From the NCBI GenBank assembly GCA_965199855.1, contig OZ241326.1:768001-832000 (forward strand): a stretch of DNA of 64,000 nucleotides. The letters run 5' to 3'. Below are positions 59,297-61,494 of this stretch, piece by piece (within the stretch, counting starts at the first letter, position 1; the number at the start of each line of letters is the position of its first letter). Below the pieces are notes generated by a model. The model saw only the letters and a program-made list of their open reading frames with translations, made no database searches and was not told the origin of the DNA. The DNA is from a bacterium. Lineage in GTDB: Bacteria > UBA8248. A program made the position numbers and the translations under genes.

Positions 59297-59790
59297 GGCC
59301 ATTTTCCCGATCAGGGGCATCCAATCTTCATTAGGGCCGCCCGGAACCCGTAGGGGCGGTTCGGGAACCGCCCGTTGCGGACGATAACGGCGTTGATTCG
59401 GACAACCACAAGGGGTTGTCCCTACGAAATACCCCGCCGTCATTCCGGCGGAAGCCGGAATCCAGAACGGTCGCGTCATTCGAGAAAGACGGGCGGCCGC
59501 CCGATCATTCACCTGACCATCGGCGCAGGGTTTCGTAGGGGGCGCATATATGCGCCCCGAACGGATGAGCGCGCGGGCGCGGAGGCGAAGAATATCCACC
59601 GGATCGGTTGCGCGCGCGTGGCTTCGCAGGGGCGACCCGTCCGCAACCCGTAGGGGCGGTTCGGGAACCGCCCGTTGCGGACGATAACGGCGTTGATTCG
59701 GACAACCACAAGGGGTTGTCCCTACGGATGCGAAACCACCCAACCGTCGCCAGCCTACGCGCGGGGCGCATATATGCGCCCCCTACGAAC
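59297..59790. repeat. REP-like palindrome cluster
   Basis: About 80 bp unit CCGTAGGGGCGGTTCGGGAACCGCCC...GTCCCTACG repeated at 59348 and 59648; GGGGCGCATATATGCGCCCC at about 59539 and 59763; CGTCATTCCGGCGGAAGCCGGAATCCA at about 59438. Confidence 0.85.
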
Positions 59791-59817
59791 CCAAAGACCC
59801 CGCCCCGTGAAACGCTC

Positions 59818-59971
59818 GACCCCCGACGCCTTTCGACGCCGGGGGTCTTCCTCGCCATGCCACGCCCCGCCCTGCCAAGCCTGGCCGAGCCATGCCTTGC
59901 CCTACCTTGCCGCGCCGTGCCCCGCCTGGCCAAACCTAGCCGTGCCCTGCCGGGCCACGCCTCGCCATGCC
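59818..59971 (-). ncRNA. GGY-NN pentamer array 2 (24 units, 59852-59971) plus GGAAG and 13 bp GAAA-tetraloop hairpin; candidate guide RNA
   Basis: Perfect 5 nt register, 22 GGC and 2 GGT constant triplets, variable dinucleotides; hairpin GACCCCCGGCGTC-GAAA-GGCGTCGGGGGTC. Confidence 0.75.
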
Positions 59972-60010
59972 TCGAACTGTCAGTTTCTCACGCTTCGCGT
60001 CGTTTTCAAT

Positions 60011-60128
60011 GAGCGCGGGGGTAATATATTCGGGCCCCCGCTCCCCTTCCTCGCCAAGCCTCGCCTCGCCAAGCCTCGCCGAGCCCAGCCACGCCTTGCC
60101 ATGCCCAGCCGAGCCACGCCCCGCCCCG
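60011..60128 (-). ncRNA. GGY-NN pentamer array 1 (15 units, 60051-60125) plus GGAAG and hairpin; candidate guide RNA
   Basis: Begins 3 nt after the stop of 60129..60728; ends GGCGA-GGAAG then GAGCGGGGG...CCCCCGCGCTC hairpin. Confidence 0.75.
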
Positions 60129-60728
60129 CTAATCCGTCAACGCCTCGATGCTCTCCGTCTCGAAGCGTCCATAGACGCCGGATTTCTCCGGCCGCCAGTC
60201 GCCCAGGCCGATGCGGCGGCCGGCGATGTCCAGCCACGCTTCCAGCTGGCTCTGATCGACGAGCTCGTCATCCGCCTCGACGACGAACGCCACCCCCCAT
60301 TCGTCGAATTTCGCCCGCGTTCGCAGGACGCGGCTGCGCTGGACGACGACGCCCGTCGTGAACTGCGCGGTCTTGGCGAGCGCCTCCGCCGTCGCTCCCA
60401 TGCTCCTGTCGTAGGAGAACTCCTCGACTTTCTCCACGAGCATCCCCTCGCGCACCTGCGGGCCCTGCTTCAGCTTTCGCGCGCCCGTTTCGATGGCCGC
60501 CCTGAGCATGCCTTCCGGGACGGTAGGCCCGCCGTCCGCGTCGAGATAGAGACTGGTGAGGCAGTCGAGCTCCCGGAGCCGGGCTTCGTCGGACTCCGTG
60601 CGGTTGCTCCCCCGCTTTCGCGCGATTTCCGCCTTCTCGACGTTGGCAGGGGATCGCGCGTCGAGTCCAGCCGCGCCGTTGTGCATGATGAGCGGTCTGA
60701 TGCCCCTGATTTTGATTCTGTATCGCAT
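60129..60728 (-). CDS. Stand-alone RAMP/Cas7-like protein (199 aa)
   Basis: ATG after GGGGAGAGGAA; IKIRGIRPLIMHN first strand, GPTVPEGMLRAAI (RAMP P-x-IP-x-x-x-LK-like), C-terminal Gly loop GLGDWRPEKSGVYGRF. Confidence 0.7.
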   Translation of the reverse strand: MRYRIKIRGIRPLIMHNGAAGLDARSPANVEKAEIARKRGSNRTESDEARLRELDCLTSLYLDADGGPTVPEGMLRAAIETGARKLKQGPQVREGMLVEKVEEFSYDRSMGATAEALAKTAQFTTGVVVQRSRVLRTRAKFDEWGVAFVVEADDELVDQSQLEAWLDIAGRRIGLGDWRPEKSGVYGRFETESIEALTD

Positions 60729-61129
60729 TTCCTCTCCCCTGAATGTTCGCCCGTCCGCCGCCGGGACGCCGGCAGAGGATCGGGCCTCAAGTCGGGCCGC
60801 CCCTCGGCGCGTGATGAGCGGCCCAGCATCCCCGGCGTCTCCGCCGTTTCCGACTGCGCCGCGGCTTCCCTGAACGCGGCCATGAATTGATGCGGGTCGC
60901 CGCCGTATTTCTCGATGTGGCGGCGCAAGGTGGTCGCCGCTTGATGGCATACCCCGCAAAGCGCGGTGAGATCGTTCGCCGTGAGCTCCCCCGGCTTCGG
61001 ATACCGCCATGCCCAATGATGCGCTTCCTCGGCGGGCCGTAGTCCGCAGAACTGGCACCTGCCCCCGCTTCGGGCGAAGGCTTCCGCCCGCGCCGCCTCG
61101 TAATTCGGCCCGTAGGTCGATTCCTTCAT
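60470..61129 (-). CDS. HNH-type Zn-finger nuclease (domain in first ~90 aa; low-complexity tail overlaps next gene)
   Basis: RSGGRCQFCG...EAHH...DLTALCGVCH; GGGAGGG RBS; extended -10 TGCTATCTT at 61155-61163. Confidence 0.7.
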   Translation of the reverse strand: MKESTYGPNYEAARAEAFARSGGRCQFCGLRPAEEAHHWAWRYPKPGELTANDLTALCGVCHQAATTLRRHIEKYGGDPHQFMAAFREAAAQSETAETPGMLGRSSRAEGRPDLRPDPLPASRRRTGEHSGERKCDTESKSGASDRSSCTTARLDSTRDPLPTSRRRKSRESGGATARSPTKPGSGSSTASPVSISTRTAGLPSRKACSGRPSKRARES

Positions 61130-61207
61130 GCGCCCTCCCGAATGAGAAAAACCGAAGATAGCATAAATCGCCCGGCGCGGTGATCCGCAGGGGCGGGGGC
61201 TCGCCCC

Positions 61208-61380
61208 GGCCATTTTCCCGATCATCGGCGGAAGGTTCCGTAGGGGCGGTTCGTGAACCGCCCGTTGCGGATGTCCACGGAAAAACGGGGCGTTCACGAA
61301 CGCCCCCTACGAAATCAATCGCCGACCTGCGGGCGGGTCGCATATATGCGTGGGACGCGCCTCTTGGCGCGTCACCTACG
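61208..61380. repeat. REP-like palindrome cluster, right flank
   Basis: GGCCATTTTCCCGATCA identical to 59297-59313, followed by CGTAGGGGCGGTTCGTGAACCGCCCGTTGCGGA...CCCCTACG. Confidence 0.8.
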
Positions 61381-61494
61381 GAAGCAAATATCCCGCCCCG
61401 TGACGGACGCCCCCGCCGCGCGTGGCGTCCCCGGGGCGGGGCTGGTAGAATCGGCGCGGAACCCTTGGATACCCCAACGCGGAAGGACGCGCCC

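Follow-up and report, generated by a model that had tools for sequence, protein, structure and literature searches.

VIPR systems were described between April and October 2026 in three preprints (bioRxiv 10.64898/2026.04.26.720920, 10.64898/2026.04.26.720927 and 10.64898/2026.10.15.759431, referred to below as the discovery, structural and satellite preprints). According to the available text of these sources, in the system of phage SUSP1 one Vipr subunit binds each GGY of the guide RNA and the NN pairs spell a gapped target (discovery and structural preprints). The discovery preprint further states that the experimentally characterised VIPRs, which are phage systems of type II, all repress transcription, that prokaryotic chromosomes hold 25.5% of VIPR loci, and that its authors read the nuclease-bearing types (III–V) as target-destroying. 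VIPR as a kind, chromosomal VIPR loci and solo guide RNAs (vrRNAs) in satellites and phages are already known from these texts, beyond which a full-text literature search for the guide RNAs turned up one passing mention. Here, we analyzed a 64,000-nucleotide stretch (the window) of the chromosome of a bacterium of the UBA8248 lineage (GenBank GCA_965199855.1, contig OZ241326.1, positions 768,001 to 832,000), in which an earlier note had pointed to a RAMP/Cas7-like protein followed by arrays of GGY-NN pentamers. In all likelihood this is a nuclease-bearing VIPR system located on a chromosome and arranged as vap (HNH) – vipr – vrRNA1 – vrRNA2, and guide-directed DNA cutting by the HNH protein is proposed. 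Three aspects are added to what is known: a conserved overprinting of vap and vipr; chromosomal solo guides, both beside a resident vipr and in a sister species that lacks it; and unit-wise polymorphism of the guides.

Guide arrays and the Vipr protein

The module occupies approximately 1.4 kb of the minus strand, along which vap, vipr, vrRNA1 and vrRNA2 follow one another. Its parts and the repeat clusters at its sides are listed below (REP, repetitive extragenic palindromic; BIME, bacterial interspersed mosaic element; MFE, minimum free energy).

60470..61129, minus strand: vap, HNH accessory gene, 219 aa; N-terminal HNH domain of about 100 aa and a tail predicted to be disordered
60129..60728, minus strand: vipr, RAMP gene, 199 aa; homologue of SUSP1 Vipr
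60470..60728, minus strand: dual-coding stretch, 259 nt; the last 86 vap codons are the +1 frame of vipr codons 1–86
60051..60125, minus strand: guide array of vrRNA 1, 15 GGCNN units (16 in the YNNGG register)
60011..60050, minus strand: tail type 1, GGAAGGGG plus a 7-bp hairpin (MFE -18.4)
59972..60010, minus strand: spacer of 39 nt from tail 1 to array 2
59852..59971, minus strand: guide array of vrRNA 2, 24 GGYNN units (22 GGC, 2 GGT)
59790..59851, minus strand: tail type 2, GGAAG plus a 13-bp hairpin (59818–59851) and a conserved stretch further downstream (MFE -29.0)
60754..60821, minus strand: degenerate tandem duplicate of vipr nt 34–101 (60628–60695), period 126 nt (repeat search, family D4)
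61287..61306, minus strand: terminator-like hairpin upstream of vap, also a REP-type palindrome (consensus match only)
59337..59810, no strand assigned: cluster of REP/BIME-type palindromic repeats on the array side (repeat families D2, D3, D5, D6, D8 and I2)
61205..61403, no strand assigned: cluster of REP/BIME-type repeats on the vap side (repeat search)

The arrays proved to be as the earlier note had described them: 15 units at 60051–60125 and 24 units at 59852–59971, with both NN strings reproduced letter for letter. The 199-aa open reading frame (ORF) at 60129–60728 was likewise recovered, and array 1 begins 3 nt past its stop codon, a placement shared by the first arrays of most relatives. 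Within the same coordinates, the HNH gene (60470–61129) and the conserved tails that follow the arrays had been left unmentioned, as had additional arrays in other parts of the genome. A regular-expression scan showed GGY to be perfect in all 39 units of the two arrays, with variable NN, and these arrays were the only runs of at least four GGYNN units in the window. The whole genome (3,043,534 bp in one contig, 67.3% G+C) contained 38 such runs; five of them were long (13, 15, 15, 16 and 24 units) and lie far outside the background, since the remaining 33 were all exactly four units. Our recount of the NN positions agreed with the earlier figures, G+C amounting to 12/30 in array 1 and 20/48 in array 2 in a window of 67.5% G+C, and 13 of the 16 dinucleotides being used in array 2. 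Slippage-type satellite DNA, already discounted in the earlier note, was rejected on account of the perfect GGY (39/39), the varied NN and the fact that the arrays travel with the Vipr gene. The 24 units of array 2 exceed every perfect run in the loci of 67 relatives (maximum 21).

With regard to the 199-aa protein, neither Pfam nor PADLOC returned a match. A phmmer search against PDB sequences matched a single chain, 36pp_D (‘SUSP1 Vipr protein’, E 7.9e-17), practically over its full length (query 4–192 of 199 against 5–188 of 202), and in PHROGs the product matched phrog_4652 (E 3e-36). An AlphaFold2 (AF2) model built from 24 homologues reached a mean predicted local confidence (pLDDT) of 87.4. 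When this model was compared with the PDB by Foldseek, 40 matches at E <= 0.001 were obtained, the top-ranked being subunits of type III and type VII complexes that belong to the Cas7 family or to related RAMPs, with template-modelling (TM) scores of 0.41–0.54 for Cas7-type chains. In the available text of the structural preprint, H17, R138, D177 and W178 of SUSP1 Vipr contact two guanines and R179 contacts the pyrimidine; in the phmmer alignment these residues correspond to H16, R138, D177, W178 and R179 here. Among the 24 homologues, R138, D177, W178 and R179 were invariant, H16 was conserved in at least 90%, and a glycine-rich motif, GRRIGLGDWRP..SG.YGRF, was also conserved. Known Vipr proteins are minimal RAMPs with an RRM core, a G-loop and a thumb. 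Alignment and predicted model together identify the 199-aa product as a homologue of Vipr that folds like Cas7 and retains the residues binding GG. Both the RAMP/Cas7 likeness and the match to VIPR that the earlier note had put forward are thereby borne out, the latter also by the published description in the discovery preprint.

By analogy with the published SUSP1 work, both arrays would be transcribed into guide RNAs, one Vipr protomer would bind each GGY and flip it out, the NN pairs would read double-stranded DNA with one base skipped per unit (xNN), and an R-loop would form starting at the tail end. The notion of one subunit per GGY with NN pairs spelling a gapped target, put forward in the earlier note, is the mechanism published for SUSP1, and the conserved GG-binding residues suggest it for the present locus. 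As far as the available text allows a comparison, this locus shares with the SUSP1 system (type II, PDB 36pp) a homologous Vipr with its GG-binding residues, the 5-nt repeat code and an array placed directly after the genes. It differs in being chromosomal rather than phage-borne; in having an upstream vap with an HNH domain, whereas vap1 of SUSP1 is a predicted DNA-binding protein in the VIPR operon; and in its GGAAG tail with a simple hairpin and its arrays of 15 and 24 units compared with 9–16. A sigma-70 promoter scan gave one plus-strand match only and none serving the minus-strand module.

The HNH accessory gene and its overlap with vipr

The product of vap matched HNH endonuclease families in PHROGs (best E 9e-7). 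A CxxC...HH...N...CxxCH motif, comprising four zinc cysteines and the HH...N...H residues, was conserved in 28 Vap sequences, for which the start codons in relatives were picked by a heuristic. In the AF2 model, residues 1–100 had pLDDT values of 86–97, while the remainder (42–62) was without secondary structure. The nearest solved folds found by Foldseek were HNH domains, first the Cas5-fused HNH of the type I-E HNH Cascade and then T4 endonuclease VII, GVE2 HNH, Cap5 and IscB; a profile made from the 28 sequences matched the HNH domains of ZRANB3, IscB and Cas5-HNH. In 46 of 67 relatives' loci, the gene immediately upstream of vipr encodes a Vap homologue. A complex prediction for Vipr with Vap scored 0.00, which is no verdict and counts neither for nor against an interaction.

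The Vap of the window has 219 aa, compared with 165–180 aa in most relatives, because the vap/vipr junction is duplicated in tandem and in degenerate form (D4; copies at 60628–60695 and 60754–60821, 68 nt, 74% identity, spacing 126 nt); this duplication adds 41 aa to the protein. In this duplicated region, a contig from public run X10 has an additional joint that goes back 60. Four Dehalococcoidia loci carry, upstream of vap-vipr, an ORF of approximately 470 aa with IstB-like/DnaA-like AAA domains, which may be an additional accessory gene of a subclade:

L012:1179-2600, ORF with AAA domains
L014:1205-2617, ORF with AAA domains
L029:1098-2639, ORF with AAA domains
L030:1176-2588, ORF with AAA domains

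The accessible portions of the discovery preprint mention HNH with examples drawn from types II, III and VII and describe the vaps of types II and VII as DNA-binding; for this reason the locus probably belongs to type III. The locus and this type agree in their RAMP Vipr, in vrRNA arrays of GGY/NN repeats that carry a 3' tail, in having two genes of which vap is of the enzyme type (the legend of fig. S21 names an HNH domain), in a setting that is cellular and not viral, and in the absence of self-targets. Unlike that type, the present locus stands outside a defence island, although the enrichment in defence islands is a tendency and not a requirement.

The class 1 CRISPR effectors with an HNH domain (type I-E Cas5-HNH Cascade, PDB 8zlu/8yb6) also have a Cas7-fold RAMP backbone, and the best Foldseek match of the Vap HNH is their Cas5-fused HNH; this likeness is marginal (E 1.2e-3; 26–31% identity). 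Here, by contrast, there is a single RAMP, the HNH is encoded by a separate, overlapping gene, and a guide period of 5 nt (GGYNN) goes with a target period of 3 nt. The earlier note had stated that the window holds neither cas1/cas2 nor a CRISPR array. This stands for cas1 and for CRISPR-like tandem repeats, both absent from the window, whereas cas2 was not searched for. With no repeat-spacer array or cas1 at the locus, a class 1 CRISPR-Cas identity was set aside. The only cas1 match of the genome is located elsewhere, approximately 150 kb from the VIPR locus (L154; host genome G000, C1:978061-978717), with 87.9 bits and over the Pfam cut-off.

The vap ORF was found to extend 163–337 nt into vipr in 45 of 46 loci, mostly by 235 or 259 nt (259 nt in the window), and the relative frame was identical in every case. 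Across vipr nt 1–231, the vap frame of 42 HNH-bearing loci contained 8 stops in 3192 codons (0.25 per 100), and 38 of these loci were stop-free. Controls ranged overall from 2.0 to 3.7 stops per 100 codons, with 2.6 in the other alternative frame, 3.2 in the vap frame further downstream and 2.0 in 13 loci without HNH, only 2 of which were stop-free. Codon diversity at conserved residues was 0.41 in the overlap compared with 0.56 in the rest of vipr in HNH-bearing loci (Mann-Whitney p 2.5e-4), and 0.47 compared with 0.48 in HNH-less loci (p 0.58). Since alternative-frame stops are depleted and synonymous diversity is reduced in HNH-bearing loci only, sequence comparison indicates that the overlap is maintained by selection; in loci without the HNH gene it is neither kept open nor synonymously constrained.

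A term search of the available text of the discovery preprint, its supplement and the satellite preprint, the structural preprint not being included, gave no mention of this overlap. With regard to a -1 frameshift that would fuse Vap to Vipr, no slippery heptamer was seen by eye near the vipr start, no formal search having been made. The disordered C-terminal third of Vap, encoded within vipr in another frame, may couple the synthesis of both proteins; alternatively, the tail might tether the nuclease to the Vipr filament.

Guide tails, solo guides and targets

Both arrays end in GGAAG followed by a hairpin tail. The arrays of relatives commonly close with ...GGCAR GGA and then a GC-rich hairpin, the sequence of which varies by locus. 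Tail type 1 (GGAAGGGG and a 7-bp stem) is common to array 1, three solo cassettes of the host genome and one solo array of its closest relative, with 24 invariant columns. In these five copies, 35/35 cells of the stem are paired, compared with 46–57% in slid controls, and one compensatory pair (G-C to C-G) is present; covariation support is modest, as 49/500 shuffles reach the score. A shared 5' motif ahead of the arrays (CAGGTCGA) was dropped as a candidate, since only 10 of 111 array starts have it. Six relatives' loci (L003–L006, L058 and L059) have long multi-guide arrays downstream of vipr, with up to 8 runs, whose units are parted by conserved spacers of approximately 40 nt (GGAACT...CAACGATA...) or by repeated hairpins, which sets them apart from the present locus with its two guides.

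The host genome also contains three solo vrRNA cassettes of approximately 290 nt, at 672, 1023 and 1193 kb, each made up of a conserved leader of approximately 130 nt, an array, a type-1 tail and a strong terminator hairpin:

L069:7885-8175 (C1:672284-672574, minus strand), solo cassette, 15 GGCNN units
L070:7838-8117 (C1:1022737-1023016, plus strand), solo cassette, 13 GGCNN units
L071:7927-8210 (C1:1193026-1193309, plus strand), solo cassette, 16 GGCNN units

The cassettes are 75–86% identical to one another outside the NN positions, and no Rfam family matched them or the main locus at E <= 0.1. One of them, cassette C, lies together with small ORFs that have no family matches between L069:7390-7575 and L069:9324-9827, two ORFs that look as if a single DUF429-like gene had been divided between them. 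A Pfam match, itself weak (E 3.8e-4), was obtained for the larger ORF only, and the length of the region varies among congeners; this gene could have been split by insertion.

Elsewhere in the genomes of the host's family, solo cassettes occurred only in the closest relative, G025, which consists of one contig (99% complete) with flanks approximately 92% identical and no vipr:

L077:2758-2884, G025 solo array
L085:1474-1604, G025 solo array

At the site of the VIPR locus, the G025 spacer between the short-chain dehydrogenase/reductase (SDR) and zinc alcohol dehydrogenase (Zn-ADH) genes measures 525 nt and holds a solo array of 13 units with a type-2 tail, which has 92% mean column identity to tail 2 over 62 columns. 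The second array, of 9 + 7 units with a type-1 tail, lies elsewhere, and its NN string partly matches that of cassette E. A putative remnant of tail 1 upstream of the G025 solo array was considered weak, its score being reached by 22/1000 shuffles against the tail of solo cassette C and by 810/1000 against the window tail. G025 may have lost vap-vipr, or the host may have gained them. In the available text of the satellite preprint, the solo vrRNAs of F5 satellites and VIPR-null phages are likewise arrays with the system's own tail and no adjoining vipr, as are the three in the host and the two in G025. Those described here differ in lying in intergenic regions of bacterial chromosomes, in the host alongside a resident vipr, and in having no match above null to host REP elements or other host sites.

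In searches for self-targets, the five guides were compared with the whole genome at skip 0–3, leaving out the match of each array to itself at skip 3. Best scores were 0.56–0.73 of NN bases, equal to those of shuffled guides; an absence of self-targets is also reported for other VIPRs in the text of the discovery preprint. Scores against the loci of 71 relatives (569 kb) were near null, with guide E reaching 22 compared with a shuffled maximum of 21, and the full array 1 pattern with <=3 mismatches occurred in 0 of 42 genomes of the host's family. The viral collection gave chance-level results throughout: 2 matches for units 6–14 of array 1 (5/12 bases outside the seed), 23 for units 1–8 of array 1 (2–7 of 14 outside the seed, best total 23/30), 2 for units 15–23 of array 2 (7/30 outside the seed) and 0 for units 5–13 of array 2. 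In the metagenome collection, units 6–14 of array 1 had 25 matches, 24 of them with 2–6 of 12 bases outside the seed, where approximately 1.4 with at least 6 are expected by chance; for the remaining one (L147) the scorer did not recover the seed (16/30). The collections were scanned with arrays 1 and 2 only. Because 8–9 perfect consecutive units, or <=3 mismatches in 30 bases, were required, these scans would miss most targets at 80% NN match, the level given in the accessible text of the discovery preprint, and are far less sensitive than the nhmmer search used there.

Several observations weigh against a nuclease-bearing VIPR system at this locus. No target was found in the scanned parts of the viral and metagenome collections or in the 42 family genomes, and none of the public runs listed as holding DNA of the locus is RNA. 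The neighbours are metabolic (an acyl-CoA ligase-like gene, two dehydratases, the SDR, the Zn-ADH and a fumarase) and do not form a defence island; they confirm the earlier placement between host metabolic genes rather than in a prophage. Array 2, with 24 units compared with 9–16 in the characterised clades of the published text, is long, and its tail differs too. The Pfam HNH match of Vap (E 0.007) has 16.9 bits against a gathering threshold of 21.4, and its Foldseek E-values are marginal (best 1.2e-3). Finally, the 41-aa insert appears only in the window row of the Vap alignment and could impair the protein.

The sub-threshold HNH score and the metabolic surroundings, together with the transcriptional repression reported for all characterised VIPRs, would also suit a system that only silences, like type II. 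The HNH protein would then assist by binding DNA or in a structural role, not as an active nuclease, and the guides might be directed at host genes or at mobile elements residing in the genome. We consider this unlikely, given that conservation among 28 Vap sequences extends to the Cys4 zinc ligands and to the HH...N...H residues, that the discovery authors, in the text available, read nuclease-bearing types as target-destroying, and that no host site matches any of the five guides above shuffled controls (skip 0–3). Under guide-directed cutting, the reading we prefer, the HNH Vap would cut the bound DNA, as its HNH motif and the discovery authors' view of types III–V suggest, and the system would then destroy, and not merely silence, invading mobile DNA.

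Distribution, guide turnover and meaning

A total of 1155 Vipr homologues were detected at E <= 1e-3, and a scan of one genome per species yielded 67 loci. These belong to metagenome-assembled genomes (MAGs) labelled Dehalococcoidia, Alphaproteobacteria, Binatia, Vicinamibacterales, Thermodesulfobacteriota and others, with 49–77% best-segment identity. In answer to the earlier suggestion that homologues be checked for arrays, 64 of the 67 loci proved to have GGYNN runs of at least four units no further than 1.2 kb from vipr. Counted in overlapping categories, 51 loci have such runs downstream of the gene and on its strand, 10 have them upstream, and 3 have them on the other strand. The density of units was 8.4 per kb near vipr compared with 0.058 in the rest of the relatives' DNA examined. 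From the loci of relatives, 130 flanking ORFs were collected, of which 30 (from L053–L067) were left out of the Pfam scan; among the 52 with a Pfam match, 36 were ordinary chromosomal genes and 16 belonged to phage, insertion sequence (IS) or defence families. Viral contigs provided only two distant Vipr relatives (44%).

Within the host's family, vipr was present in 1 of 42 genomes, that of the host itself. Vipr at 49–77% best-segment identity thus occurs in MAGs of at least seven phyla or classes, yet not in the 41 other genomes of the family. This suggests recent horizontal spread within one habitat; it could possibly reflect mis-binning instead.

The spacer between the SDR and Zn-ADH genes, which measures 50–200 nt in most congeners listed, extends over approximately 2.1 kb here and is full of REP-type repeats. 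A 35-nt direct repeat (D8; 59776–59810 and 61369–61403, 80% identity) brackets the module with a spacing of 1593 nt, and recombination between its copies would excise vap, vipr and both arrays. No recombinase was found beside the module in the window.

The position in a spacer that is so short in most congeners, the presence in a single family genome, the relatives scattered over MAGs labelled as many phyla and the IscB HNH domains among the nearest profile matches of Vap are features that a selfish mobile cassette would also have. Guided by RNA, HNH cutting would then promote the spread or maintenance of the cassette (homing, or a TnpB/IscB-like addiction) and not the defence of the host. This seems very improbable to us: the full array 1 pattern, missing from all 42 family genomes at <=3 mismatches, does not spell an empty site, no guide matches the relatives' loci above null, and neither target-site duplications nor defined ends were found at the module, the flanks of which are REP clusters.

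Population variation was followed in contigs of four public runs compared with the locus; runs labelled sponge metagenome are among those holding it. Run X3 was identical over the covered part of the locus. In run X4, one contig leads from the 3' end of vipr (60113) to tail 2 (59848) through 74 different letters, where the window has 264. In run X10, array 1 is extended by 15 letters inserted after 60067, and array 2 has 37 letters at a place where the window has 87. The array length differences between populations (15 nt and 50 nt) correspond to whole numbers of 5-nt units, and the flanks are alike. Joints in run X10 that skip approximately 1.45–1.5 kb across the module were disregarded, as their sides are 26 nt within REP repeats.

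The poorest prospect among the explanations considered is a decaying relic, that is, a once-functional VIPR locus that is drifting while its arrays expand by slippage. The unusual length of array 2, the 126-nt duplication in this Vap, the absence of a found target and the sister genome G025, which retains arrays while having lost, or never had, vap and vipr, would be compatible with decay. However, both ORFs are intact with their key residues conserved, all 39 units keep GGY perfectly, and several runs hold near-identical copies in which changes come in whole units. The whole-unit differences between populations show guide turnover in nature.

A broader proposal for the HNH-type clade is possible, although we hold it only tentatively. 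It has two parts. Firstly, nuclease and guide-binding protein would be physically coupled by overprinting, approximately 80 Vap codons providing a Ser/Thr/Arg/Pro-rich disordered tail that tethers or doses the HNH on the filament. Secondly, guide genes would outlive the effector, leaving chromosomal solo vrRNAs that any incoming Vipr could arm. If this is true, solo vrRNAs would represent a standing guide library for a host without an effector of its own. The dual-coding region is a testable feature. It might account for the matching of nuclease to filament, and any engineering of the vipr 5' end has to respect it.

As far as the available texts go, VIPR has been tested so far only in phage type II gene-silencing systems, and the locus described here is a compact (approximately 1.4 kb), natural, nuclease-bearing chromosomal example. 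Its two guides, the three stand-alone guides in the same genome and the sister genome without the protein genes offer a ready comparison for the role of the HNH partner.

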